Source: a virus
Taxonomy: Duplodnaviria > Caudoviricetes
DNA: 64,000 nt
Strand: one strand, 5' to 3'
IMG/VR virus record: IMGVR_UViG_3300037067_017859
Location: 32,001 to 96,000 of that record
Shown here: piece by piece, positions 5,508-49,322 of the stretch
Position numbering within the stretch: the stretch's first letter is position 1
Layout: the number at the start of each line of letters is the position of its first letter
Translations under genes and position numbers: made by a program
The notes under the pieces: model-generated
Databases searched by the model: none
Seen by the model: only the letters and a program-made list of their open reading frames with translations
What the model was told of the DNA's origin: nothing

Positions 5508-5525
5508 TATCTTGCGCTCCTTCGT

Positions 5526-5540
5526 GTAAACCCGGTTTAT
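5526..5540. promoter_or_regulatory. 15-bp palindromic motif GTAAACCCGGTTTAC (14/15 copy)
   Basis: GTAAACCCGGTTTAT just upstream of the HU-like gene RBS. Confidence 0.65.
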
Positions 5541-5623: not shown

Positions 5624-5653
5624 TTGACAGTATTTCTCAATTCGTGTTATAAA
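5624..5653 (+). promoter_or_regulatory. sigma70-like rightward (early) promoter
   Basis: TTGACA, 18-nt spacer, extended -10 TGnTATAAA, upstream of the first rightward gene. Confidence 0.65.
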
Positions 5654-5719
5654 AAAGTTATGCTTTCCCAAGACTCCACACCCAAACCGAAAGCCGTTAG
5701 ACAACAAGGAGATATTTCA

Positions 5720-6052
5720 ATGATTACATTGCCAGACTTTGCCAATGAAACTGAATCTAATGAATTCTTTGCCCCTATCATTCTTGAAGCTCTTCGCAAG
5801 GATGCACAGGACAATGAAACGCCAGTTCCTCTAGATGAATATGATTCTGCCATGGAGCAATTAGAAGATTACAGCGGCTCCGATATCGTAATTGTCTATT
5901 TCAATCGGCGTGTTGTTGTTGTCCGCAGTATTCTGCCTTTTGAGAATGAAGGGCTCCTTGTTATCGATCTTGATTCGAAATCTGTTGTCCTGTCCTCCTG
6001 TACTTCTTACGAGGATGGGCAGGCTTCCGAATTGAATCTCTCTAAAGCTTAG
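5720..6052 (+). CDS. acidic hypothetical early protein
   Basis: AAGGAG RBS before ATG 5720; D/E-rich. Confidence 0.65.
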   Translation: MITLPDFANETESNEFFAPIILEALRKDAQDNETPVPLDEYDSAMEQLEDYSGSDIVIVYFNRRVVVVRSILPFENEGLLVIDLDSKSVVLSSCTSYEDGQASELNLSKA

Positions 6053-6061
6053 GAGCGTTTT

Positions 6062-6280
6062 ATGAAAAATTCCCTCTATGCTGATTTAAAAGCTAATGGC
6101 ATTGAGACTGATCATCATGAAAGCGATTTATACTTTCCTCGAAATCCGCAGACAATGGCAATCTTGTCCAGATATCCACTCCAGAAAAACATTGCCAGCA
6201 TTTTCATTCACACTGTAACCAATACTCAATGGTATGAAGTTCCTTTTGCTTATTCGCCCTTTTGGGCATCGAAAGGCTAA
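6062..6280 (+). CDS. conserved hypothetical protein (DHHESDLY...WYxxPFAY type)
   Basis: AGGAG RBS; motif recurrent in phage/mobile-element proteins. Confidence 0.7.
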   Translation: MKNSLYADLKANGIETDHHESDLYFPRNPQTMAILSRYPLQKNIASIFIHTVTNTQWYEVPFAYSPFWASKG

Positions 6281-6284
6281 CCCA

Positions 6285-6500
6285 ATGAGATACGACATCT
6301 ATAAACGATATTTGCCCCTCGCACCAAATGATACCTATCGTTTTGAACCTGTCTGTTTTCGCACAAATAAGCGTGACGCTCTCTCTTGTGCTCGTGAGCT
6401 TTCCTCTAATCATCCTGAATTCAAATTTTCGGTGCATATCGGAGCAAAAATAATTGCATTCGCAAAAGCTGGCCGGGTTTCCCACTTCGCACAATATTGA
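6285..6500 (+). CDS. hypothetical protein
   Basis: AAAGG RBS; fills the gap in the operon. Confidence 0.5.
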   Translation: MRYDIYKRYLPLAPNDTYRFEPVCFRTNKRDALSCARELSSNHPEFKFSVHIGAKIIAFAKAGRVSHFAQY

Positions 6501-6507
6501 GGACAAA

Positions 6508-6693
6508 ATGAAAGTTGAAAGAGTCTTTACCGTTCCATCAACCGTTAAGCACTATTACCAATGTGAATGTGAAGCTCTGAATTGTCATGGCCGGGCAGGT
6601 TGTAAAAACGAAGCACATTCGCGCTATCGCATCGACGATTTTGTTAAGTTCTGGCTGTGTCCGAAATGTGTCAATCATTATCGAAAGGCTTAA
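6508..6693 (+). CDS. small Cys-rich (zinc-binding) protein
   Basis: GAGG RBS; CEC...C...CPKC. Confidence 0.6.
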   Translation: MKVERVFTVPSTVKHYYQCECEALNCHGRAGCKNEAHSRYRIDDFVKFWLCPKCVNHYRKA

Positions 6694-6695
6694 TT

Positions 6696-7091
6696 ATGGC
6701 AAGCTATTTACAGGAATCTTTTAATCAGGTCTGTAAGCAAGCGATCCAGCCGAAAGGCTATTATGTTTCCCTCATGGAAAATATTCCCTATTACGGTGGG
6801 CCTGAAGAAGGAGGTTGGTGGGGTCATGATACGCGCATAGTCGCTTATCAGCGTTTCCCTTCTCTAGAACAAGCTGAAGCTGCAAAATCACAAGTGGAAA
6901 CTTTAGCCAATGAATTGACTATCGAGGATAGAAAGGCTTATGGCGACCATTGCTTGAGACAAACGGAATGGCTCGAAGCTCGTGGTCTTGATGATTCTTT
7001 TCTGCCTGAACCTGATGGCGAATCTGAATTTTATGTGTGCGTTTCTGACAGTCTGCCAGAAGAGTCTTTTGGCGATCGTCATTACGAATAA
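6696..7091 (+). CDS. conserved phage hypothetical protein (YGGPEEGGWW type)
   Basis: Recurrent phage early-gene motif. Confidence 0.7.
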   Translation: MASYLQESFNQVCKQAIQPKGYYVSLMENIPYYGGPEEGGWWGHDTRIVAYQRFPSLEQAEAAKSQVETLANELTIEDRKAYGDHCLRQTEWLEARGLDDSFLPEPDGESEFYVCVSDSLPEESFGDRHYE

Positions 7092-7102
7092 GGAGTGATT
7101 CT

Positions 7103-7630
7103 ATGATGGGACCGAGAGAATTATCACAGAAATTGCAACCGGCTGTTCACGCTTGTTTGATTGCACAAGCTTGTGCCTTAGTGCATCGAGAGAGAGTTGA
7201 CGCAATTCAGCGCCGGATTTTGCAAACTGGCAATTGGCTTGCTGAAAAATCTCAAGAAAAGATTACCGATCCTAACCACACATATCTTATGCCTCAATCC
7301 GATTACCCGGCCTACTTTACCACTCTTCGAAAAGCATTAGAGGCTGACGGCTATGTTATCCAAACACACCATATTAATGACAATGAAAATTATTGGGATT
7401 ATTACTGCCCTGCCTGTCTGGCTGAAAGCATACAATCGGACGCCGAACACGTCTTAATCAATCTTTTCGCGGAATATCTCAATTATAAGGATTTTCTTCA
7501 TAAACTTCTCTCCGCCGGGATGGATGATTATCGCAAGCTCATTGATCTTCTTGTGCGGTTTGTCGTCAATTCGCCTGATTACGTTTCTCCTGTAATTCCT
7601 AAGAACGAGGCAAACCAATGCCATGGATAA
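7103..7630 (+). CDS. hypothetical protein
   Basis: TAAGGAG RBS. Confidence 0.7.
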   Translation: MMGPRELSQKLQPAVHACLIAQACALVHRERVDAIQRRILQTGNWLAEKSQEKITDPNHTYLMPQSDYPAYFTTLRKALEADGYVIQTHHINDNENYWDYYCPACLAESIQSDAEHVLINLFAEYLNYKDFLHKLLSAGMDDYRKLIDLLVRFVVNSPDYVSPVIPKNEANQCHG

Positions 7631-7908
7631 TTGACAAAGACCTTACAGCCGATCCGAATAGGCCAGAAGGTACGAATGCCAATGCTAAGGGGCTCCTGGG
7701 ACCAGGGACATATTCAGGCGATGGTTCAGAGCTCAAACATCAGTTCCGAATGTCCGATGATGATGGAATGATTTATTACATCGGACGCAATGATACCGCA
7801 GACGATAATAACGCTTTTGGGCCTTTAGACGATTTTGGAGCGCCTAACGCAGGATGCACCACGATCGAATATTTTGATGAGGATACCAGACAATGGCGAA
7901 TTCTTTAA
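7618..7908 (+). CDS. conserved phage hypothetical protein (FRMxDDDGxxYYxG...PLDDFG..GCxxIEY type)
   Basis: GAGG RBS; recurrent phage early-gene motif. Confidence 0.7.
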   Translation: MPWIIDKDLTADPNRPEGTNANAKGLLGPGTYSGDGSELKHQFRMSDDDGMIYYIGRNDTADDNNAFGPLDDFGAPNAGCTTIEYFDEDTRQWRIL

Positions 7909-8159
7909 TGTCCCAATACAAATACTCTCAAGGCAGAACAATGCACGAAGCAATCAAAGCACAAGATTCTTATGCTGTAGACGCAGACGGTTTTGCTTCT
8001 CCGTTCTGGTGTCCAGGAACTTGCGGTATTGATGAATCTATTCTGGCTTTTAAATCTAATTTCCCAAATATTCACGGAGATTTTAAGCTCCTTCGAGTTT
8101 TAAAGGGCTCACAAATTGGTTGCATGATTTACGAAGAGTCAACAACTATCACATTTTAA
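7893..8159 (+). CDS. hypothetical protein
   Basis: ORF track; operon continuity. Confidence 0.5.
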   Translation: MANSLMSQYKYSQGRTMHEAIKAQDSYAVDADGFASPFWCPGTCGIDESILAFKSNFPNIHGDFKLLRVLKGSQIGCMIYEESTTITF

Positions 8160-8170
8160 TGGAGGCTTTT

Positions 8171-8689
8171 ATGCGCGTCTTGGTTGCCACAACAAAACAG
8201 CAAGGGAAAAGGTCTAATGATTTCAGCTTTACGAATGATGGCGAATTAGTACGTTATGGCTTTGATTGCGATGGCGAAGACGTTGACGGTGTTTGCGGCT
8301 GCAAGCGATCCTTAATCGGTTTCGATTCCCATAAGGGAACCACTACCTTTTGCATTGCCGAAATGGATATTAACCTCGAACAAGTAACCAAACTCATCGA
8401 AAAATCTCTAAAGGCTTCTGGCTTCATATCCCCAAGCGATCCAGAAGAAGAAAACAAGGAATTCATTGCTGAAATTGTGCTGGAAACTTTGAGCCTTTGG
8501 AAATCGTTCGATCAATTCCCTATTGGCCTCGTGCTGGAACGTAGAGGAGTATATTTCTCTCCGCGGATTGAGAAATCCGGATTATGTCCTATTTGTGGCG
8601 AAAAGATTCACCTTTCCGGACGGACGAAAGACAATAGATATATTGGCTCCTGTCAGGATGCTTTTACACTAGAACAATGGATTGCCTGA
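8171..8689 (+). CDS. conserved hypothetical protein with C-terminal zinc ribbon
   Basis: GGAGG RBS; MRVLVAT..QGxRxNDF...CGCxRS; CPIC. Confidence 0.7.
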   Translation: MRVLVATTKQQGKRSNDFSFTNDGELVRYGFDCDGEDVDGVCGCKRSLIGFDSHKGTTTFCIAEMDINLEQVTKLIEKSLKASGFISPSDPEEENKEFIAEIVLETLSLWKSFDQFPIGLVLERRGVYFSPRIEKSGLCPICGEKIHLSGRTKDNRYIGSCQDAFTLEQWIA

Positions 8690-8765
8690 TTCATTCTGGA
8701 TTTCGCGTGTAAACCCGGTTTACACGCGATACCTTGGATTAACCAGGGAGAAAGAGATAACTACA
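8690..8765 (+). repeat. structured intergenic element, copy 1 (contains the GTAAACCCGGTTTAC motif at 8709-8723)
   Basis: GGATTT-CGCGTGTAAAC/GTTTACACGCG-ATACC-hairpin-AGAAAGAG-ATG. Confidence 0.85.
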
Positions 8766-9224
8766 ATGGAACCGATCACCATTGGAACTGCAATCAAGGA
8801 AGTTCAAATCAAATACCTTACTCGCCAGAAAATAGGCGAGACTCGAAAGATATACAACAGTCAAGACGTTTTTGACATATTCCATCCTCTAATCAATCCC
8901 GAACGAGTTGAGGTTTTTATCTGTGTCATGGTCAATTCGAAAAACCGTATTTTGTCCTATGAGGTTGTGAGCCGAGGCTCTCTTAATATGTCCGTTACTC
9001 ATCCTCGTGACGTATTTTCAACTCCCGTACGACTACAGGCTTCGGCTGTACTTTTCCTGCACAATCATCCTTCGGGAGATCCAGCGCCAAGTATAGAAGA
9101 TAAAGACTGCACAGAAAAGCTTATGGCAAGCGCCAAAACTTTAGCAATCAAAGTATTGGATCATATAATCATCGGCGAAACTTCATATTACAGCTTTGCC
9201 GATTCTGGCGCATTGCCTGTCTAA
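8766..9224 (+). CDS. RadC-like JAB/MPN domain protein
   Basis: E..., HPRDVF, HNHPSGDPAPSIED, LDHIII, YYSF. Confidence 0.9.
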   Translation: MEPITIGTAIKEVQIKYLTRQKIGETRKIYNSQDVFDIFHPLINPERVEVFICVMVNSKNRILSYEVVSRGSLNMSVTHPRDVFSTPVRLQASAVLFLHNHPSGDPAPSIEDKDCTEKLMASAKTLAIKVLDHIIIGETSYYSFADSGALPV

Positions 9225-9297
9225 TTCTGGATTTCGCCTGCTAATGCTCATTGGCAGGCGATACCTTGAATTAATCAAGGGGAAAGAGAGCAAGCCA
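9222..9297 (+). repeat. structured intergenic element, copy 2
   Basis: TAATTCTGGATTT-CGCCTGCTAATG/CATTGGCAGGCG-ATACCTTGAATTAATCAAGG-GGAAAGAGAG. Confidence 0.85.
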
Positions 9298-9759
9298 ATG
9301 CTACAACATTTCAAACCGTGCAATCGATCCAAAGAACGCATGGCTTATTATGCGGCTCCTGAAGGCAAAACGATCAAGGTCGAACTCTATTACACAAAAG
9401 GAGGAATCAGCTTCGCTACTAATAAACAAGTGCGAAGGGGAATCTTTATTTCCATTACGCCGGTGACATTAGAAAAGACTCAATCCGGTTTTACCTCGGA
9501 GTCTTTTATGCTTTTCTCAGGTACGCGAAGCCTATTATGTGAGCTCAAACGCTTTTCCGAAAAGGCATTGCATGATGTAGCCGAAAAGATTGACGACCTT
9601 ATTCCAAAGGTTGCTGCAAATATCAATGCAGAAACCGCGACACAAACCGATTTTGACACAAATGTTTTGTATCTCCGCGATTGCTACCTGAACCCTGAAC
9701 TTAGAAATTTAGCCTTTCCGGCGCCGGGTAGTGAAAAAACAAAGGCTTCCAATGGATAA
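9298..9759 (+). CDS. hypothetical protein
   Basis: Starts at the end of element copy 2; LYYxKGG...RGIFxS pattern. Confidence 0.7.
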   Translation: MLQHFKPCNRSKERMAYYAAPEGKTIKVELYYTKGGISFATNKQVRRGIFISITPVTLEKTQSGFTSESFMLFSGTRSLLCELKRFSEKALHDVAEKIDDLIPKVAANINAETATQTDFDTNVLYLRDCYLNPELRNLAFPAPGSEKTKASNG

Positions 9760-10312
9760 TAAAAAACGGCGTCCACAGTTATATTTGAGTTTTACGCTCC
9801 GTCCAGAAGAAACGATTTCAGTACTTCGCCATGGCGACCAAGCGATTATCATTGTCTCCGTAATCCAAAACGATTTTGAAGGAGGAGGAACTTTATCTGA
9901 ACCCAAATGGAGAAATTGTAGCCGTATGAAAGGAACTGGACAATTCGATAACCTCGAACTTAGAGGATATCTATCAGCCGATATGAACGGCGCTTATGGC
10001 TATCACGTGGCCTATTGGGATATCCATGAAGCTGAATCTAAACGGGCTGCATTAATGGCCAAAACCCTCAAAATGATTGAAAAGAAATTCTCTTATTACA
10101 ATACAAAGGAGGGAGACAGGCTTGATATCGGCGTGGAAGTAAACCGCTTTTGCCGGGCTATAGGCGCTGAAGGTCTTATTGAGTGGACAGAAACCATTTC
10201 CAATTATGATGATTGTCCTTATCGCAAATGGAATCTAGCGCAAATACCAAATGTCGTGAATTCAAGAATTGAAGGTTGGCATATCGAGCACCCGAATAAA
10301 TCAATTGCATAG
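9752..10312 (+). CDS. hypothetical protein
   Basis: Coupled to the upstream gene; ends at element copy 3. Confidence 0.65.
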   Translation: MDNKKRRPQLYLSFTLRPEETISVLRHGDQAIIIVSVIQNDFEGGGTLSEPKWRNCSRMKGTGQFDNLELRGYLSADMNGAYGYHVAYWDIHEAESKRAALMAKTLKMIEKKFSYYNTKEGDRLDIGVEVNRFCRAIGAEGLIEWTETISNYDDCPYRKWNLAQIPNVVNSRIEGWHIEHPNKSIA

Positions 10313-10387
10313 CTTGGATTTCAGGACATAAGCCATAATCTTATGTCCTGATACCTTAGCTTATGCGAGGGGAAAGAGAGTAAACCA
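10307..10387 (+). repeat. structured intergenic element, copy 3
   Basis: GCATAGCTTGGATTT-CAGGACATAAG/CTTATGTCCTG-ATACCTTAGCTTATGCGAGG-GGAAAGAGAG. Confidence 0.85.
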
Positions 10388-10585
10388 ATGCCAAGAGTAT
10401 TTGACCTTAGCGAAACGGAAATTGTCCAATATCATCATATGCGCGATCGGACGCCGGATTGCAGAAACTTTTCCGGCGCTGGCAGGCGGCGCTATCCATG
10501 CCCTACGTGCGGCAAACCAAATCGATTGACTGAAACGGAATCTCTTGAGGGATTTCAATGCTCTAATTGTTCGAGGAAATCATAA
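10388..10585 (+). CDS. small zinc-ribbon protein
   Basis: PCPTCGKPNRLT...GFQCSNC. Confidence 0.7.
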   Translation: MPRVFDLSETEIVQYHHMRDRTPDCRNFSGAGRRRYPCPTCGKPNRLTETESLEGFQCSNCSRKS

Positions 10586-10587
10586 TT

Positions 10588-10953
10588 ATGGATACCAATT
10601 GGGATAGGGAACCACAAATGGACGCTGAAAGAAAACCGTCAATGGAAGACAAAGGGTTTACAACAAAGTCTCCTTATCTAATGACAAAGGAAGAGCGCCA
10701 TAGTCTTTTCCAATGCCTGGAAGCGGAATTGCAATTGCAGAAGCTTCCAACATCATATGGGTTGCCTCGTTTGGCTCATTCCGACGAATTCATGATAATG
10801 CATACCACCGAAGAAGGTGTTATAGGATTTAAGCATATTGGCACCCGCAACTATGTTTTCCTGCTTCCTTCGGAAAGCCAGAACCGTAAGTATGAGCTTT
10901 ACGTTCCTGTGTCCAGAGAGCTTTTTATGCGTGGACAATTCGACGAATATTAG
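10588..10953 (+). CDS. hypothetical protein
   Basis: GAGG RBS; operon continuity. Confidence 0.6.
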   Translation: MDTNWDREPQMDAERKPSMEDKGFTTKSPYLMTKEERHSLFQCLEAELQLQKLPTSYGLPRLAHSDEFMIMHTTEEGVIGFKHIGTRNYVFLLPSESQNRKYELYVPVSRELFMRGQFDEY

Positions 10954-10959
10954 GATTTT

Positions 10960-11184
10960 ATGAAAACCAGAAGATCTGTGAGGAATCAAAACATTCTTTG
11001 GAAAGAACTGGGAGGAAAACCCGATCCAAAGCCCGAACCAGTAAAAACCAAATGTTGTTGGAATTGCATATTTTATTCTAACTGCGGCCGGACAAATGGA
11101 ACTTGCAGAAAGCATGGGAAAAAAGTGGGAGGAAGAGAACAACTGAATTGTTATACACCAAACCTAAAAGGAATAACGCTATGA
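10960..11184 (+). CDS. small Cys-rich basic protein
   Basis: CWNC...C...C; AGGA RBS. Confidence 0.5.
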   Translation: MKTRRSVRNQNILWKELGGKPDPKPEPVKTKCCWNCIFYSNCGRTNGTCRKHGKKVGGREQLNCYTPNLKGITL

Positions 11185-11414
11185 AAAAAGTTAAAGAACT
11201 GACCGATGAGGAATGCAGGGAGGTTTTAGACAGAATTGTTAGAGTAATGTATGAAAGCATTGATCCTGATACGGACAAACCTATTCTAGATCCTTTCAAT
11301 GAATTTAATGCCTCGATGCTGGACGATATCGCGGCGGCTCTTGAATCCTATGAGTTAGTTCCGGACGAAATTGTTGATCTGGAAGAACCAGAAACAGATT
11401 CTTTACCGGAGTGA
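11181..11414 (+). CDS. small acidic protein
   Basis: AAGGA RBS; ATGA overlap; very D/E-rich. Confidence 0.65.
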   Translation: MKKVKELTDEECREVLDRIVRVMYESIDPDTDKPILDPFNEFNASMLDDIAAALESYELVPDEIVDLEEPETDSLPE

Positions 11415-11492
11415 TTATCGAGCTTGGCATTCTGCTCCTGGGAATAGAATGCCAGGTCCGCTAATTAAAGCGGGGAAAAAGAGCAAACCATT
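11412..11492 (+). repeat. structured intergenic element, copy 4 (divergent)
   Basis: CTTGGCATTCT/AGAATGCCAGG stem, CCGCT/AGCGG hairpin, GGAAAAAGAGCAAACC-ATG. Confidence 0.75.
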
Positions 11493-11684
11493 ATGGACAA
11501 TATCATTACTAAAATCGACGAAGCAAATAATCGGCTCATTATCAACTTGGCATTACAGGCTCCAGTAGCATCGGCCAGTGGGAAAACCCTCGTGGTCGCG
11601 TCCACCCGCGGCAACGTAAAGACCGGAGTCATGATCAATGGCAAAGAAGTCACTGTTGGCTGCAATGCCTACATAAAGCCCTAA
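11493..11684 (+). CDS. conserved small hypothetical protein (SASGKTLVVAST..GN type)
   Basis: Recurrent small-protein motif; bounded by element copies 4 and 5. Confidence 0.75.
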   Translation: MDNIITKIDEANNRLIINLALQAPVASASGKTLVVASTRGNVKTGVMINGKEVTVGCNAYIKP

Positions 11685-11689
11685 AAATA

Positions 11690-11762
11690 CTGAAAGGCGA
11701 TTTCACGGGCCACATTCTTTGTGGCCTGTGATACCGCTTTTTAGCGGGGAAAGAGAGAAACC
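11690..11762 (+). repeat. structured intergenic element, copy 5
   Basis: AAAGGCGATTT-CACGGGCCAC/GTGGCCTGTG-ATACCGCTTTTTAGCGG-GGAAAGAGAGAAACC-ATG. Confidence 0.85.
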
Positions 11763-12029
11763 ATGAGCAAACCGAAAAAGGAAATATCTAAACCTCCGTT
11801 CAATGATCCGGAGTTAAGGCTAAAATTCAGACAGCTTGTTAATGCGGCCGTCAAACTCCAATGCATCCTATGGGACAGATTCGGAGAGATTGAAGGATTG
11901 TTGGGCAGAGATATTCAAGACTTCGACGCTAATATCCATGATCTTGCAGCGGCAAGCGACGAAGGGTTGATAGATGATAGCCAAGCTGAAACTTTTTTCA
12001 ACGAACTTGAATTCACTCCGGAGGACTAA
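11763..12029 (+). CDS. hypothetical protein
   Basis: Starts at the end of element copy 5. Confidence 0.7.
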   Translation: MSKPKKEISKPPFNDPELRLKFRQLVNAAVKLQCILWDRFGEIEGLLGRDIQDFDANIHDLAAASDEGLIDDSQAETFFNELEFTPED

Positions 12030-12033
12030 TCCG

Positions 12034-12948
12034 ATGATGCTAACCTTAACCGAATGGACGCCTGAAAGAATACCGATCAGTCACCAATTGCCTCCTATGC
12101 CGCACGAGGGATGTCTTCAAATACCCAAAGAATGTGAATCAGGTTGGGAGCAATTGCCACGTGCTGTAGAACCTGAAGCGGAAGAACCTGAGATTGAAGA
12201 AAAACCAAAAATCAAAGAGTCAGAATGTTTGATTAAAAAAAAGGACATTTTGGCTTATTTCAAAGGGAACGATAAAACCGGGTATACCTGCCATCCGCCA
12301 TGGATGAAATTATTTGAAATCTACACTCCACCAAGTTGCCCAAAGCCGCCGATCGATAAGAAGATAGCAGCTACCATCGAAAGGTTGACCAAGAATATTC
12401 AGAAAAGTTATGTCCAGCACCTTCCTGCAAACAAAAATCATAGGCAATGCGATGCTTACATCGGCTCCCGAACAAAAGATTATAAATATGAATGTGTCGC
12501 AACTGACGAACACCGAGCTATCCTCGTGAGGAGGAATGATAAGCAGAAAAAAGTCAATGGGGTTAGCTCATGGAGGCTATGGAGTGTTAATGAAGTTCCG
12601 AGTCCAGGCGAACCGTCACTAACCCTGACGGATCCTGATATTTTTGTTGCCATTAAACGCCTTTCCACACTTCTGGACACTAAGTATTGGTTCATTGTTT
12701 TAAACTGGAATGATTCAGGGAAATTAATCATTTCCGCCGAGAATTCATTCAAGGAAGAAGGAGTTGAAGAATTTTCTTGTAAAGCCACCTATTCCGGCAG
12801 AATTGCTTTAGACCCTCGTTATGTTCTTCCTGCGCTTGGAACATGGCCATTAGTTATGTACCAGAAAGAAAAAAAGAGTCCTGCAATCTTTATGCCGGAC
12901 ACAAAACAACGTGAATTCATGTACGTGCTTATGCCAATGCAATTATGA
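12034..12948 (+). CDS. protein with C-terminal half resembling the DNA polymerase III beta clamp (last ~1.5 domains)
   Basis: VATDEHR (cf. VATDGHR), IALDPRYV (cf. IAFNxxYL), YVLMPMQL (cf. YVVMPMRL); GGAGG RBS. Confidence 0.6.
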   Translation: MMLTLTEWTPERIPISHQLPPMPHEGCLQIPKECESGWEQLPRAVEPEAEEPEIEEKPKIKESECLIKKKDILAYFKGNDKTGYTCHPPWMKLFEIYTPPSCPKPPIDKKIAATIERLTKNIQKSYVQHLPANKNHRQCDAYIGSRTKDYKYECVATDEHRAILVRRNDKQKKVNGVSSWRLWSVNEVPSPGEPSLTLTDPDIFVAIKRLSTLLDTKYWFIVLNWNDSGKLIISAENSFKEEGVEEFSCKATYSGRIALDPRYVLPALGTWPLVMYQKEKKSPAIFMPDTKQREFMYVLMPMQL

Positions 12949-13036
12949 ACAATCTAAGTCTGGTCGTGTAAACCGGGTTTACGCGACCAGACTCCGCTTT
13001 TAAGCGGGGAACTGAGGAAGAAAGGAAATTAAATCA
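12949..13036 (+). repeat. structured intergenic element, copy 6 (contains the 15-bp motif reversed, 12968-12982)
   Basis: AGTCTGGTCGTGTAAAC/GTTTACGCGACCAGACT stem, CCGCTT/AAGCGG hairpin, GGAA, purine-rich RBS. Confidence 0.75.
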
Positions 13037-13570
13037 ATGGACGAATTAACAGAAGATCAAAAGATCGGAACATGTTCCTGGTGTCATGAGAAAAAAGTCC
13101 TCATCTATAAGGACACCAAACGCTGCGATTCCTGTGATAACCGCTTTACCTATTGTGAAATATGCGAAGAAGAGCAATTTGAAGATGATCATTGTCGTCA
13201 CTTATTTTGGTCTGAAGGCTACGGATGGAGTGGAAGCGGGACAACCAATACAGATTACGACAGCATAAAAGCCTCGCTATTGAAACTCCTTCAATTTATG
13301 CCGTCTGGATTCGCGGCAGAACTCCGAACGGCCATTCTTAGCAATGAATTCCGTACTTTTACGATCGGCAGTCTATTGAGGATCGATTGCGTAGAATTAG
13401 AGGGGTTTCATCCTTCCTTGAAATACAGCAAGAAATTGATTGACCTTGAAAGTAGCGACCATGCCGAAGAAACAGCCGATGGTTATAATTGGCTTGCGAG
13501 TTTATGTGAGAGTGATACGGCAGAAGCCAATGCCCTAACAATCAAATGGATCGAGGAATTCTTAAAATGA
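13037..13570 (+). CDS. Cys-rich N-terminal (zinc-binding) hypothetical protein
   Basis: Three CxxC pairs. Confidence 0.7.
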   Translation: MDELTEDQKIGTCSWCHEKKVLIYKDTKRCDSCDNRFTYCEICEEEQFEDDHCRHLFWSEGYGWSGSGTTNTDYDSIKASLLKLLQFMPSGFAAELRTAILSNEFRTFTIGSLLRIDCVELEGFHPSLKYSKKLIDLESSDHAEETADGYNWLASLCESDTAEANALTIKWIEEFLK

Positions 13571-13758
13571 CCAAACTCGAACTTGGGAGGAAGAACATGC
13601 AGAAGGAAAAGCTATTCGACGATCGAAAGCAAACCAGGCGAAGAAGACCGAATTTCGGGAAACGATACATTCCAAAACATAAAACCCCGTTGCCCATCGA
13701 AGATTACATTGATGCATTTGGGAGGAAAGACAAGGCCGGGCGTGAAAACCAAAAATAA
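13567..13758 (+). CDS. small basic hypothetical protein
   Basis: GAGG RBS; ATGA overlap. Confidence 0.5.
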   Translation: MTKLELGRKNMQKEKLFDDRKQTRRRRPNFGKRYIPKHKTPLPIEDYIDAFGRKDKAGRENQK

Positions 13759-13884
13759 AGGAGGGTTCTATGGGCAGAAATTGGCAACCGAAGCTCAAAT
13801 GCAAATGCAGCAATTGCGGGTGGACCGGAAAGCGTACTTTAAGAATGATGTCTAATTATTGCCCCAACTGTGGGAAATGGGGAA

Positions 13885-14565
13885 CTATTCGTCAGGATCC
13901 GGAATGACATCTTCATCGTCTTCATCGGAGATTTCATCAACCGATGCAGTTTCTTCCTCTACCGGGGTTGCCTCTGCATCAATAACCATTTCACTATTTT
14001 GGGGGATTTGATCTTGAGTATTAGCAGCATTCATTCTATCCATTACAGTACGAAGAAGATCTTCAGAACTCCGGATTCCAGACTGCTGGCGGGATTCGCC
14101 TCCACCGATGTTCAAACTCTGCTGATTGACGCTGACATTGATGGCTCCCGGCTTCTCCGTCATTCCAACCGCTTCGCGGTATTCTTTCAATGGGCTCGTG
14201 GGAGTCAGGCCGGCCGCCAAGAATTGCTTGGCTTCAATATCCAGGGATTCACCCAAGAGGCGCCGGTACTTTTGACCCTCGGTACGCTGAATCAGCAAAC
14301 GGTTTCTGTCATTCTCATGCGCAATAAGCGTTCTGGTTTGGTGAAGGCTCTTGACATGCTGGAGGTCACACTCAATGTCTGCAAGATTGCACTCTTCGCC
14401 ATTCCTATTAAGAAAAGCGACGATCTCCTCTTCAGTAAATCCGGAAATATAATGGCTGTAGACCGTGACAGCCCGATCGTGAGAAGGATAACCATTTTTA
14501 GCGCCACGCTTACTCTGCGGCGGGACATCGCTTTTGGTGATGGCCCATTCATAACCTTGTTTCAT
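13885..14565 (-). CDS. putative terminase small subunit-like / HTH protein
   Basis: N-terminal HTH-like segment, helical middle, INVSVNQQ beta segment, VIDAEATPV and acidic tail, an architecture common in TerS; start uncertain (ORF track gives 14601). Confidence 0.4.
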   Translation of the reverse strand: MKQGYEWAITKSDVPPQSKRGAKNGYPSHDRAVTVYSHYISGFTEEEIVAFLNRNGEECNLADIECDLQHVKSLHQTRTLIAHENDRNRLLIQRTEGQKYRRLLGESLDIEAKQFLAAGLTPTSPLKEYREAVGMTEKPGAINVSVNQQSLNIGGGESRQQSGIRSSEDLLRTVMDRMNAANTQDQIPQNSEMVIDAEATPVEEETASVDEISDEDDEDVIPDPDE

Positions 14566-14620
14566 AACGTGATGATACAACATCAAAGATAAAATTAACA
14601 AAGGATCTTTAAGGAGGCCA

Positions 14621-15439
14621 ATGATCTATCCTCACGACCATAAAGAGGAATTTATAGAGTTGGAATCTGGCCTTATCGTGCCACGGGATGCCATTCCTAA
14701 ACGGCGTCCAACCTGTGTCGATTTGTTTTGCGGATGCGGCGGCATGAGTTTGGGCGTAATTCAGGCCGGAATGGAAGTAGTTGCAGCCGTCGAATGGGAC
14801 TATGCGGCCGCGCAAACTTATCTCGTAAACCTTGGAGAGTATCCCTGCGAGATCATCGGAATCGATCCTGGAGATCGAGAAGGTTTTTCAGATTATTTGG
14901 AAAAACAATTCAATAAGCAAAAGCCCCAAAATGGCGTAGTGCAATTAGACGTATGCGGAAGCGGGTGGAGAGCGCACAACCCGGAAATTCCTGGGGTTAA
15001 GCATTTCTTTATAGGCAACATACGCAATCTGACCGGCAAGCGCATCCTCGAAGCTGTGGGCCTTGAGCAAGGAGAACTCGATTTAGTTTGCGGTGGTCCT
15101 CCTTGTCAGGGCTTCTCACTCTCCAATTCTAAGCGTAGCGCCGATGATCCTCGGAATAGCCTTGTTTTTGAATTTGTGCGTCTGATTCTTGAAATGATGC
15201 CCAAAACCATGGTGATGGAGAACGTCCCTCAAATGGCGAAAATGGTTACGCCATGGGGAACCAATATAATAGACGAAATTGCTCTTCGGCTGGAAGCTGG
15301 AGGATGGGGAGTTGCTGAAGGCGTCAGGCAAACACTTTTAGGTGGGAAGGATCGAGGAGGGGCAATCAAACGGCCTAAAGAGACAAAAACTATAAAAACA
15401 AATAAGCAAAAGAAACTAAGTTTTAAGAAAGGAAGTTAA
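14621..15439 (+). CDS. C5-cytosine DNA methyltransferase, N-terminal half only
   Basis: DLFCGCGG (motif I), GGPPCQGFS (IV), ENV (VI); no QxRxR motif VIII, TRD or IX/X; TAAGGAGG RBS. Confidence 0.85.
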   Translation: MIYPHDHKEEFIELESGLIVPRDAIPKRRPTCVDLFCGCGGMSLGVIQAGMEVVAAVEWDYAAAQTYLVNLGEYPCEIIGIDPGDREGFSDYLEKQFNKQKPQNGVVQLDVCGSGWRAHNPEIPGVKHFFIGNIRNLTGKRILEAVGLEQGELDLVCGGPPCQGFSLSNSKRSADDPRNSLVFEFVRLILEMMPKTMVMENVPQMAKMVTPWGTNIIDEIALRLEAGGWGVAEGVRQTLLGGKDRGGAIKRPKETKTIKTNKQKKLSFKKGS

Positions 15440-15442
15440 CCG

Positions 15443-16030
15443 ATGAGCCACCTATTTCTCACTGAAGAGAAAATTCACATCCTCCTGGAGTCGGCAAAGG
15501 CTAATCTTCGTGACTATGCTTTACTGCACATGGCGGCAAGCACAGCGTTGCGAGGATCCGACCTTCTCAGAATCACCCTCGAGGACATGGTTGATAGGAA
15601 CGGCGAAATCATCAGGCTGCTCCGATTAAAGATGAAGAAGACCGCCCAATGGATCGAACGGCCGCTCCGGGACGATTGCCGGCAAGCTGTTTTTACCTGG
15701 ATCAATAGCCGGAGAGACAAAAACCCTTATCTCTTCATTTGCCTTGGGAATGAAGGGAAAAACAGAAAAAAACCATTAAGCAGAATGGGTTATGATCGAA
15801 TTATCAAAAAATACCTGGCTTTGCAATATCATGAATCCGTTTTGCAGGGATGCTCGACACATACGCTGCGGCGATCCGTGGCGAAGCTCGTCTATAAGAA
15901 GACCGGCGAAATTGCCGCGGCGCAATCGCTTCTTGGGCATCATTCCCCCATCAATACCATAAAATATATCGATCCAAACGAAATCAAGGAGAAGGCTAAT
16001 AAAGTGGTTTTGGAGGATCTTCAATGGTAG
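15443..16030 (+). CDS. tyrosine recombinase, catalytic domain only (195 aa)
   Basis: ALRGSDLL (R), KKT (K), HTLRRS (HxxR), LLGH, TIKY (Y). Confidence 0.9.
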   Translation: MSHLFLTEEKIHILLESAKANLRDYALLHMAASTALRGSDLLRITLEDMVDRNGEIIRLLRLKMKKTAQWIERPLRDDCRQAVFTWINSRRDKNPYLFICLGNEGKNRKKPLSRMGYDRIIKKYLALQYHESVLQGCSTHTLRRSVAKLVYKKTGEIAAAQSLLGHHSPINTIKYIDPNEIKEKANKVVLEDLQW

Positions 16031-16563
16031 AAAACGATGATCCTACCAAATTCGAGGTTGCCTGCGTTCATGGCACATCTATTATCAGGCGTAAGGTCGT
16101 AAATGAAAAGGGATTTGAAATTCTACAAAGGATGGCGGAAAGAGCAACAAATGGACAATATCACTGGATTAGAGTAAATTATCCCGATTCGACAACAGAG
16201 CGGGTGCTTGGGGAAGTACCTGGGGCTCATAACCCTGGTAAAGGCGGTCCGACTCCGCCACCCGCTACCAAATTAAAATTAAAAGAACCAAGTCCTTTTA
16301 AAGGAGACCCTGGCGATTCAACAACCAAATGTCTTGGTTGTGATAAGGATTTGGGATACCCAACAAGCAGAAAAAAACCATCTGCATGGTGCCGGTCCTG
16401 CTATCCAAAATATAGAGCTTATCTCAAAGATGAAGTTAATCCTTATAACTATGATTTTCCGATTTATAATTATGCGTCAGGCCATAATTCAATAAATTTA
16501 AGAATAAAACAAAAAATGCAATATGGGTTCAGGATTCTTTATGCTTCATATAACGAAGGATAG
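16024..16563 (+). CDS. hypothetical protein with CxxC...CxxC
   Basis: GGAGG RBS; CLGC, CRSC. Confidence 0.6.
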   Translation: MVENDDPTKFEVACVHGTSIIRRKVVNEKGFEILQRMAERATNGQYHWIRVNYPDSTTERVLGEVPGAHNPGKGGPTPPPATKLKLKEPSPFKGDPGDSTTKCLGCDKDLGYPTSRKKPSAWCRSCYPKYRAYLKDEVNPYNYDFPIYNYASGHNSINLRIKQKMQYGFRILYASYNEG

Positions 16564-17242: not shown

Positions 17243-19126
17243 ATGCATCCAAGTGTAATGGACTTCTTGAGAAAAAATATAATTGGCGAAGAATTCGAGG
17301 GAAAACGAGTTCTGGAGATCGGAAGCATATACTGGGACGTCAGCCCTCGAGACATCATCATTCCATTAAAGCCTGCCCTATATATTGGGATTGACGAACG
17401 GCCAGGTAAAGGCGTCGACGAAGTAAGATCCGCTAATGAACTGTCCAACAGATTCGAGCCCGGCTGGTTTGACGCCGTTGTTTGCACCGAAGTTCTTGAA
17501 CATGCAAAAAACTGGCGTCTGCTAATCGAACAGATCAAATATGTCCTCAAACCTGGAGGGGTTCTTTACTTAACATGCCGCGGTGAGGGTTATCCTTACC
17601 ATGAAGAACCGAACGACTTCTGGAGATTTTCCGTTAAGAACATGGAGGGAATCCTTTCCGATATGATCTGCTTCATTGAACCAGATCCGCAATTCCCTGG
17701 AGTATTCGCTAAAGCTTTTTTAAGCCAGGAAGCTTTGAGGCCGGCGAAGCTTTATTCCATTTTCCCAAAACCTATATATCCCCCGACGCATCATCTTTCA
17801 CATAAGGGTCCGCCAGTAGACCAATCTATAAAATTCACTGTCATCACAGCCACAATACTTAGACCTTCACTAAAAACCGCCTGTCGGCGCCTGGAGGCCC
17901 AAACGTATAAAAACTGGGAGCACATTGTCATGATTGACACTCCCGGCGCAGATATCCCTGAATGGCTGCCACATCCACAAAGGAAAATCAGGGTTTGCCC
18001 AATACCTCACAATAACGTGGGAAATAGCTGCCGATCTAACGCTTGGCCCCTGATAACCGGAGATTACGTCATTTATTTGGACGATGACAATCACTACCAC
18101 AGCCGCAGTTTAGCTCTCCTTGCAGAGGCTATTATGCGAATGTCTCCGCATCCGGAATGGGGAGTGTTCCCAATGGCAAGGATGGGCAAGATATTTTTTA
18201 ATGTCCCACCAGGTAAGAACAAGACTGATACTGGTCAATTCTTTCATAAGCCGATCGTCCGCGGGATTGAGATCCGATATCTTCCCATAAACGACTATGC
18301 CGCAGACGGAGAAATGGTCGAGAAGCTTTCCAGAATATGCAAACCGGCCATCATTAATCCGGAAATCCCTCTCATAAACATGCCAGTGAGAAGTTTCGGT
18401 CTGAGGTCTGACTATTTTGCCAAGACCGAGGCAAGTAATTTCTCAGTAATTATTCCTAATCGATTCGAGGATATAATCCGACCGCTTATTCATTCGATCA
18501 AATTGCACGAACAGGATCCATGCCTGAACGTCCTTATTGTCGGAGATTGTCATAGTAGGGATTACGGATTTTCAAACCTAAGACTGGATTATGAAAAATT
18601 CATCTTTTCCCGAAACGTCAATGCCGGAATCAGGTATGTGGATCCAGATGACGTAATTCTTGTGAATGATGATATTCGTCTAATAATGCCTACCTTCCAA
18701 ATCCTTCACCGGATTATGCAGGAAAATCCAAAAATAGGGATACTCACGCCTTTAGTCGATGGAGGAGTGGGAAACCCTAAACAAGTCGCTGAAAATGTGC
18801 TGACTGGAAACACCATGCCTCCTGAATTAACCTATTCAGCTTGCACTAAAGACGATTATCTTACCTTCCCTATTGTCTGCCTGAAGAGAAAACTCCTCAA
18901 TGAGATGCTTTTCAATGAGGATTTTGTGTCTTACGGGAAAGATGACGCTGACTTTTGCATTCGCGCCGGCCGGCTTGGATGGAAAGCAGCGGTTTACAAC
19001 TGGATTGTCTGCCAACATGGCTCGGGCGGAAGTGAGAACCTCCGCGGAAAGAATTGGAATACGTCTTTCATGCGGCGCCCGGAACTTTTGGTAGGAGAAG
19101 ATGTTTTTTCCAAAATTCACAAGTAA
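17243..19126 (+). CDS. class I SAM methyltransferase fused to two GT2-family glycosyltransferase domains
   Basis: VLEIGS...CTEVLEH...LKPGG; VITAT...YLDDDN; VIIPN...NAG...LVNDD...DDADFCIR. Confidence 0.85.
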   Translation: MHPSVMDFLRKNIIGEEFEGKRVLEIGSIYWDVSPRDIIIPLKPALYIGIDERPGKGVDEVRSANELSNRFEPGWFDAVVCTEVLEHAKNWRLLIEQIKYVLKPGGVLYLTCRGEGYPYHEEPNDFWRFSVKNMEGILSDMICFIEPDPQFPGVFAKAFLSQEALRPAKLYSIFPKPIYPPTHHLSHKGPPVDQSIKFTVITATILRPSLKTACRRLEAQTYKNWEHIVMIDTPGADIPEWLPHPQRKIRVCPIPHNNVGNSCRSNAWPLITGDYVIYLDDDNHYHSRSLALLAEAIMRMSPHPEWGVFPMARMGKIFFNVPPGKNKTDTGQFFHKPIVRGIEIRYLPINDYAADGEMVEKLSRICKPAIINPEIPLINMPVRSFGLRSDYFAKTEASNFSVIIPNRFEDIIRPLIHSIKLHEQDPCLNVLIVGDCHSRDYGFSNLRLDYEKFIFSRNVNAGIRYVDPDDVILVNDDIRLIMPTFQILHRIMQENPKIGILTPLVDGGVGNPKQVAENVLTGNTMPPELTYSACTKDDYLTFPIVCLKRKLLNEMLFNEDFVSYGKDDADFCIRAGRLGWKAAVYNWIVCQHGSGGSENLRGKNWNTSFMRRPELLVGEDVFSKIHK

Positions 19127-19137
19127 ACCCGGTTTAC
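19123..19137. promoter_or_regulatory. 15-bp palindromic motif GTAAACCCGGTTTAC (exact)
   Basis: Overlaps the stop codon of the MTase-GT gene. Confidence 0.7.
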
Positions 19138-49297: not shown

Positions 49298-49307
49298 AAA
49301 TCCTCCA

Positions 49308-49322
49308 GTAAACCCGGTTTAC
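49308..49322. promoter_or_regulatory. 15-bp palindromic motif GTAAACCCGGTTTAC (exact)
   Basis: Occupies most of the 26-bp gap between two virion genes, next to the RBS. Confidence 0.7.

Follow-up and report, generated by a model that had tools for sequence, protein, structure and literature searches.

In phage T7, the early precursor messenger RNA (mRNA) has five processing signals for RNase III, whose ideal substrate comprises 22 base pairs (bp), and mismatches or loops at the target site lead to single-strand cuts that leave stabilising 3' hairpins (PMC3867540). PeSL cassettes, small conserved regulatory repeats built from a sigma-70 promoter and a terminator, are located between the non-essential small genes of the plastic early region of T4-type phages, where close relatives differ by insertions, deletions, and replacements that have their break points at the repeats (PMC2839356, PMC4122927). 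The start-associated sequences (SAS) and extended SAS (ESAS) of Cluster K mycobacteriophages are asymmetric conserved motifs of 12-13 nucleotides (nt) that include the ribosome site a few nt before the ATG, have one orientation, are found only at non-structural genes, and are often preceded by an inverted repeat (PMC3203893). Integrons have an attC site at the 3' end of each gene cassette, a hairpin that varies in sequence but is conserved in structure, including bases that are unpaired or mismatched. Repeated structured spacers between small accessory genes occur in many phages, but to our knowledge almost none has been tested for function beyond the RNase III sites of T7 and the PeSLs of T4. 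Here, we analysed a stretch of 64,000 nt (the window; bases 32001-96000 of the 109,283-bp IMG/VR phage record IMGVR_UViG_3300037067_017859, which is rated complete) that holds six copies of a repeated intercistronic element on its + strand between positions 8686 and 13039. We find it to be a genuine RNA element, confined to one lineage, in which two covarying pairings exclude each other and a mismatched junction is conserved. By analogy, it can be regarded as phage gene punctuation akin to the T7 RNase III sites in its anatomy, to PeSLs in its evolution, and to SAS/ESAS in its ribosome-site box.

Architecture and exclusive pairings of the element

Each copy comprises the entire gap between the stop codon of one gene and the ATG of the next, which is 72-81 nt long, and 88 nt in the sixth copy (copies are numbered c1 to c6 in the window, and d1 to d6 plus dX in the only relative found, which holds seven). 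The parts follow each other in the order 5' arm, (G/C)GATTTC, hairpin 1, GATACC, hairpin 2, GGGGAAAGAGAG, 4-10 A/C-rich nt, and ATG. Hairpin 1 has 12-13 bp in all ten canonical copies, with a variable sequence and a loop of 3-7 nt, and hairpin 2 is built from CC and two to four variable pairs and closed by GG. Three invariant boxes thus flank stems that vary freely. The third of these, the purine box GGGGAAAGAGAG close to the ATG, shows only a weak GAAAG/GAG match to the anti-Shine-Dalgarno sequence by inspection. A first-pass annotation of this DNA had named five copies, to which a sixth has to be added at 12944-13039; c4 and c6 contain neither GGATTTC nor GATACC. The upstream stop codon is located 4-5 nt before GATTTC in seven of the 13 copies, in the same alignment columns, and 8-16 nt away in c1, c4, c5, c6, d5, and d6. 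A U-R-A triplet is found in columns 7-9 of the outer arm (alignment A5) in eight of the ten canonical copies, for example at 11691-11693 in c5, and c5 and d5 keep this triplet though it is not the stop codon of their upstream gene. The element may bring its own built-in stop.

Covariation was evaluated in a model-guided alignment of the ten canonical copies from the two phages. For hairpins 1 and 2, 97.7% of the cells are paired compared to 70.4% in column shuffles, 14 of the 18 pairs have changed on both sides, and the covariation score is 0.78 (0.23 in shuffles and at most 0.10 in slid controls). The outer stem, in which the strand after GATACC (the 3' arm) pairs back with the 5' arm, is paired in 87% of the cells compared to 67.1% in column shuffles, a value reached by none of 500 shuffles. 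Half of its ten pairs have changed on both sides, and its score is 0.50 (shuffles 0.137, slid controls at most 0.22). Of nine positions, 7.2 are paired between cognate arms (5' and 3') and 4.5 between arms swapped across families, and in the energy version of this comparison the cognate arm is favoured in five of seven families. Because the outer stem (alignment columns 53-61) and hairpin 2 (columns 52-57) have five columns in common, they are mutually exclusive. It is thus confirmed that the strand after GATACC has two covarying, exclusive partners, either hairpin 2 or the 5' arm, and the proposal of the first-pass annotation that both pairings are kept despite differing sequences holds, through compensatory changes that exceed those in shuffles. 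The individual arm pairings on which it had been based are all present: TAATTC with GAATTA in c2, GCATAGCT with AGC(T)TATGC in c3, TGATTA with TAATTA (11462-11467) in c4, AAAGGCG (11693-11699) with CGCTTTT (11735-11741) in c5, and a partial pairing at 10 of 13 positions in c1. The same is true for the stop codons within the 5' arms of c2, c3, and c4 (TAA 9222-9224, TAG 10310-10312, and TGA 11412-11414).

The junction of the long fold, which joins the outer stem to hairpin 1, consists of G.U or C-G, G-C, A.C, U-A, U.U, U-A, and C-G, and is invariant apart from compensated changes: its first position alternates between G.U and C-G, and the closing C-G is A-U in d1. The A.C mismatch next to the G-C pair is invariant in the ten canonical copies and present in 12 of the 13 copies overall. 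Its reported occurrence in c1 to c5 is borne out, with c4, like d6 of the relative, rebuilding G-C and A.C from another sequence (CGAG/UCCG). The succession of outer stem, hairpin 1, GAUACC, hairpin 2, and GAAA resembles the three-stem topology of a hammerhead, which was rejected: the equivalents of the core G8/A9 are A/C, C3/U4 have no conserved counterparts, and Rfam contains no matching model. Inspection ruled out a kink-turn or a loop E at the junction, and a link to the Ro60/Y-RNA array of the phage was dismissed, the boxes of the element being absent from that array.

In 10 of the 13 copies, folding is more stable for the + strand than for the - strand (-397 versus -354 kcal/mol in sum over all copies), and orthologous hairpins differ by double changes and by changes from G-C or A-U to G.U, with which pairing is kept only on the + strand. 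A promoter scan gave 22 promoter-like sites versus 24 expected from shuffles, none of them recurring at the copies, and a terminator scan did not hit the hairpins, which are followed by GATACC or GGGGAAAG and not by a T-run. Because of the strand energies, the G.U changes, and the lack of a recurring promoter or terminator at the copies, the element is best read as a sense-mRNA structure within one operon. In such a transcript the long fold is transcribed first. It is the predicted minimum in nine of the 13 copies, and in most copies it has an advantage of 1-8 kcal/mol. For example, it has a predicted probability of 0.99 in c5, whose stop codon (TAA 11682-11684) is located 14 nt before the element core, and it is the predicted minimum in c3, whose hairpin 2 is weak. 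The conformational switch suggested by the first-pass annotation therefore stands as far as alternative folding of the copies yields two exclusive folds, but these are not in balance, the long fold dominating in most copies. Hairpin 2 covaries and yet is thermodynamically disfavoured in the intact transcript, and for this reason it looks like the fold taken when the 5' arm is removed or occupied and not like one half of a balanced switch. Neither fold covers the stretch from AAAGAGAG to AUG. When the 5' arm is forced to be single-stranded, which mimics a ribosome terminating there, the mean unpaired probability of this stretch only changes from 0.63 to 0.69. Masking of the 5' arm thus barely alters the access to the ribosome site, and coupling by unmasking has no thermodynamic basis.

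The relative, IMGVR_UViG_3300037067_015039 (109,212 bp), is 72-77% identical in the block that contains the copies. It was the only viral contig found by exact-pattern scans, which among metagenome contigs returned only a 1.3-kb fragment identical to part of the relative. In bacterial and archaeal genomes, all pattern matches examined among those listed (at least 120) were chance matches, and BLAST of the block against deposited phages gave no match. A covariance model of the element (R1) recovered just the 13 known copies across both genomes, with no further copy in the 109-kb genome, and none in 79 other RadC-carrying phage loci. With Rfam models, nothing reached gathering scores in the window, and a search of 8500-12000 with E-values up to 10 gave two chance-level hits (E 2.8 and 4.9). 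Protein searches with the RadC protein encoded between c1 and c2 found more distant homologues. An unrelated hairpin follows the gene in the closest RadC phage loci of IMG/VR, and more distant RadC-carrying phage contigs (L166-L169) have in common another conserved hairpin, GGGAGACACACG..CGTGTGTCTCCC, about 50-90 nt after RadC, which is unrelated in sequence to the element.

Gene exchange at the elements

The homology between the two phages stops at 9289, which corresponds to the last bases of the c2 box, with unrelated genes beyond, and resumes at 11458, between hairpins 1 and 2 of c4. At c4, one of the two phages (G000) carries two additional genes, and its hairpin 1 differs. Homology also stops at 13011, just past hairpin 2 of c6, and at 10949, at the stop codon where d4 of the relative begins. 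Contigs from the source metagenome (run X1) diverge at 9289 and 11759, each immediately after a box (c2 and c5, respectively), and the source groundwater sample contains at least one further related strain. Such strains are present in both the groundwater and the landfill runs (X1 and X2), with at least a third variant diverging at 11759. Although the elements make up only about 11% of the 4.5-kb block, they account for three of the five internal block ends, which has a chance probability of about 0.01 in a binomial estimate. The break points are not at one fixed position and therefore fit short-homology exchange, as proposed for PeSLs, better than site-specific recombination. Whatever the mechanism, the conserved boxes serve as homology patches for gene exchange among related phages. 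The element shares this with the PeSL cassettes, as well as its location as a small conserved repeat between small genes, and insertions, deletions, and replacements break at it in the same way (9289, 11458, and 13011, and the loose ends at 9289 and 11759). Unlike the PeSLs, it has neither a strong sigma-70-like promoter in each copy nor an intrinsic-terminator stem-loop, and sits inside one transcript.

One short metagenome contig (X1) joins 8726 to 9264, and in it a c1-like hairpin is connected to a c2-like hairpin 2 via AGGAT in place of CGATA. The interpretation of this joint as a RadC deletion between c1 and c2 was rejected, given only 23 matching letters on one side and five foreign letters in between.

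Possible functions of the element

Based on these data, we tentatively infer that the element is a signal between the cistrons of an mRNA, recognised through its structure by a protein, most likely a nuclease of the RNase III type, with hairpin 2 as the post-cleavage fold. The element would punctuate one long early operon mRNA of the 109-kb phage. In the primary transcript the long fold would form first, with the outer stem, the junction, and the 12-13 bp of hairpin 1 adding up to about 22-25 stacked positions. A structure-specific protein, most likely an RNase III-type double-strand RNA endonuclease supplied by the host, would then recognise the conserved non-canonical pairs at their fixed distance from the loop. 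Cutting at the junction would separate the cistrons and leave hairpin 1 as a protective 3' end of the upstream message, and the 3' arm, having lost its partner, would refold into hairpin 2 as a 5' cap hairpin in front of the purine-rich ribosome site (GGGGAAAGAGAG, 4-10 nt, AUG). The states before and after processing would accordingly correspond to the two exclusive folds. The 3' arm would refold in the same way whenever the 5' arm is occupied by a ribosome that completes the upstream gene. A structure-specific protein is suggested by the constant length of hairpin 1, the invariant non-canonical pairs below it, the size of about two helical turns, which is that of an ideal RNase III substrate, and the intercistronic position. 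A cut at the junction would free the 3' arm and so account for both covarying folds. That all six copies are located in one + strand run without a recurring promoter or terminator supports processing within one transcript.

The T7 early intergenic regions, which we folded, show the same anatomy: at R0.5 and R1 the upstream stop codon is part of the lower stem, and the next ribosome site comes 20-35 nt further on. The positions of the T7 sites (R0.3, R0.5, R1, R1.1, and R1.3), for which the T7 record has no annotation, follow Dunn & Studier 1983. Both types are repeated irregular hairpins of about two helical turns, located between the cistrons of one early polycistronic mRNA without a promoter or terminator of their own. 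In both, a junction of non-Watson-Crick pairs separates the upper stem from a lower stem of variable sequence, the 5' arm of which may contain the upstream stop, and the next ribosome site follows shortly downstream. Like the T7 sites, which are irregular hairpins of at least about 20 bp, the element has 22-25 stacked positions in its long fold, where U.U and A.C keep a constant distance of 12-13 bp from the loop. In contrast to T7, with its sequence-conserved upper stem and flanks, the upper stem varies freely and only the GGAUUUC/GAUACC junction and the ribosome-site box are fixed here. In addition, the 3' arm has a second covarying partner in hairpin 2, and cleavage is a prediction. The T7 sites share CUCAAGGUC..GGCCUUUAUGAUU, and nothing similar is found in the element, which is therefore an analogue and not a homologue.

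Several points weigh against a processing signal. The 13 copies from two genomes represent only 5-7 independent families behind the covariation statistics. A search for an RNase III encoded by the phage found none, and among the RNA runs checked for the phage there was no match. Both c4 and c6 keep the same architecture without the GGATTTC and GATACC boxes, and c6 has no outer stem to speak of. The purine box is conserved over 12 nt, beyond the needs of a ribosome site, which processing leaves unexplained. Finally, an RNA-binding regulator that does not cleave would fit the present data as well as a nuclease.

Such a regulator, encoded by the phage and binding the junction and/or the GGGGAAAGAGAG box of co-regulated genes as its operator, is a somewhat unlikely explanation. 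The element would then resemble the sites of T4 RegA or the proposed role of the Cluster K start-associated sequences, and the restriction to six genes of one block as well as the three invariant boxes around freely varying stems would be expected. The over-conserved purine box would also find a role, being located 4-10 nt before the ATG like the SAS motif (PMC3203893). It does not belong to that family, whose 13-bp motif GGGATAGGAGCCC is found 3-8 nt before the start, and the ESAS repeats are conserved in sequence with variation that does not support RNA pairing, whereas the stems of the element vary and covary (PMC3203893). However, the neighbouring genes yielded no candidate for an RNA-binding protein, the architecture is kept in c4 and c6 without the boxes, and the competition between hairpin 2 and the outer stem would remain unexplained. 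In a ribosome-sensing switch, a terminating ribosome would melt the outer stem and the 3' arm would flip to the covarying hairpin 2, coupling downstream translation or stability to translation of the upstream gene. With the stop codon in the A site, the mRNA footprint of the ribosome would extend through the entry channel roughly as far as the foot of hairpin 1, so that the outer stem alone is opened, and the tight distance from stop to ATG and the stop register shared by seven copies are compatible with ribosome sensing as suggested in the first-pass annotation. Unmasking of the ribosome site, however, is not supported, given the small change in accessibility, and the folds are unbalanced. 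In the other six copies, the stop is 8-16 nt away. At RNase III sites of T7, too, the upstream stop is part of the lower stem, and compaction alone thus explains its position, while the invariant mismatches and the fixed hairpin length get no role. We therefore consider such a switch unlikely. A 'cassette junction RNA', in which the G-C/A.C/U.U junction of the long fold is recognised by a phage- or host-encoded protein only if no ribosome terminates on the 5' arm, so that upstream translation gates processing or decay at the boundary, seems quite improbable.

Functions at the DNA level would comprise cassette recombination sites, attC-like and used by the tyrosine recombinase at 15443-16030, or PeSL-like homology patches. 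It is true that genes replaced or inserted between the two phages have their break points at the elements, that the 195-residue recombinase is encoded only 2.4 kb downstream, and that PeSL cassettes mediate similar shuffling in T4-type phages (PMC2839356, PMC4122927). Yet the junctions differ in position, being located either behind the box or between the two hairpins, which fits homologous exchange and not a fixed crossover, and any conserved repeat can yield shuffling as a by-product. The ribosome-site box at a fixed distance to the ATG, which attC sites do not include, points to a role in expression. The first-pass annotation had also considered an attC-like hairpin whose conserved unpaired bases are read by a protein, of which the protein-read bases survive in the processing signal that we prefer. 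Membership in attC was rejected. The RYYYAAC/GTTRRRY cores are absent, with GGATTTC and GATACC as flanks in all canonical copies, and it is the coding strand that folds, being more stable in 10 of 13 copies and containing the G.T pairs, compared to the bottom strand in attC. There is no IntI; the only tyrosine recombinase is a co-directional catalytic domain far under every Xer/IntI cut-off (best NCBIfam score 68 bits versus a cut-off of 220). A DNA-level function is thus very doubtful. An arrangement as terminator and promoter cassette, which would make each gene its own transcription unit, could be supposed from the GC-rich hairpin after each stop codon, as in the PeSL design. It is hard to reconcile with the absence of a T-run after either hairpin, with sigma-70 hexamers that do not recur and are no commoner than in shuffles, and with a variable hairpin just before GGGG, unlike phage-polymerase promoters. 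A search of the phage, run without a positive control, also found no gene for a T7-type RNA polymerase. This function is extremely improbable.

The locus and the meaning of the element

The DNA of this phage is present in groundwater and landfill metagenomes. The copies (Table 1) are part of a + strand run of small genes from about 5660 to 16563. By eye, a likely sigma-70-type promoter that the promoter scan had not flagged is found in front of this run, and it likely heads the early operon that contains all six copies. The recognisable genes of the block are typical of an early or anti-defence region, and its other genes are orphans.

Table 1. Copies of the element and neighbouring features, in window coordinates
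Feature	Position	Strand	Parts and remarks
Likely sigma-70-type promoter	5624-5653	+	TTGACA, 17-18 nt, T(T)ATAAA
DUF7715 gene	8120-8689	+	
c1	8686-8768	+	stop TGA 8687-8689; GGATTTC 8698-8704; hairpin 1 cap is palindrome GTAAACCCGGTTTAC; GATACC 8728-8733; box GGAGAAAGAGAT 8747-8758; ATG 8766 (RadC-like gene); outer stem only partial
RadC-like JAB protein gene	8766-9224	+	
c2 (reference copy)	9216-9300	+	stop and 5' arm TAATTC 9222-9227; GGATTTC 9229-9235; hairpin 1 9234-9245 with 9250-9261; GATACC 9260-9265; 3' arm GAATTA 9268-9273; hairpin 2 CCTTGA 9264-9269 with TCAAGG 9275-9280; box GGGGAAAGAGAG 9279-9290; ATG 9298
c3	10303-10390	+	5' arm GCATAGCT 10307-10314 with stop TAG 10310-10312; GGATTTC 10316-10322; GATACC 10350-10355; 3' arm 10358-10366; box 10369-10380; ATG 10388 (Lar-like gene)
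Lar-like zinc ribbon gene (weak match)	10388-10585	+	
c4 (variant type B)	11406-11495	+	5' arm TGATTA 11412-11417, doubles as stop codon; hairpin 1 GGCATTCT..AGAATGCC, without GGATTTC/GATACC; junction G11420-C11459 adjoining mismatch A11421.C11458; hairpin 2 CCGCT..AGCGG; box GGGGAAAAAGAG 11472-11483; ATG 11493
c5	11685-11765	+	5' arm CTGAAAGGC 11690-11698; GATTTC 11699-11704; GATACC 11730-11735; 3' arm GCTTTTTAG 11736-11744; hairpin 2 CCGCT TTTT AGCGG; box 11746-11757; ATG 11763
c6 (variant)	12944-13039	+	stop TGA 12946-12948; hairpin 1 17 bp (12958-12992), cap GTAAACCGGGTTTAC; hairpin 2 CCGCT TTTA AGCGG; purine box degenerate; outer stem almost none; ATG 13037
C5 DNA methylase gene	14621-15439	+	
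Tyrosine recombinase gene	15443-16030	+	195 residues, catalytic domain only; directly after C5 methylase

The tyrosine recombinase gene is 87% identical at the DNA level in the relative and could encode an integrase, resolvase, or invertase. Between c5 and c6, a protein of 304 residues is encoded (12034-12948, + strand), whose C-terminal 110 residues weakly match domain 3 of the beta clamp of DNA polymerase III (E 4.7e-6 with NCBIfam dnaN and E 2.2e-5 with the PHROG processivity factor). A palindrome of 15 bp, GTAAACC(C/G)GGTTTAC, has seven exact copies and one variant in the 109-kb genome, with about 0.001 expected by chance. In the window it is located at 5523-5540, 8706-8720, 12965-12979, 19120-19134, and 49305-49319, outside the window at genome positions 7577, 15983, and 104743, and it is also found in L130 at 2942, 5669, and 9956. 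Nearly all copies are at gene boundaries, in both orientations, one is in the early promoter region, and the palindrome caps hairpin 1 of the first and last copies of the element (c1 and c6; d1 and d6). It may act as an operator, bound by a dimeric protein, or simply as a cap that several hairpins have in common.

The element is a clean case in that it combines covarying stems, invariant mismatches at a fixed distance from the loop, a competing second fold, and gene swaps at the element itself. If upstream translation gated the recognition of the junction, each acquired gene would get a ready-made stop codon, an insulator, and a ribosome site, and the element would be the natural equivalent of synthetic insulators and mirror, at the RNA level, the cassette design of integrons. 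Should cutting followed by refolding be wrong, the A.C/U.U junction would still mark the binding site of some factor. If it is right, it would explain how phages make acquired genes independently stable and translatable units, and would provide a compact natural design of an insulator.

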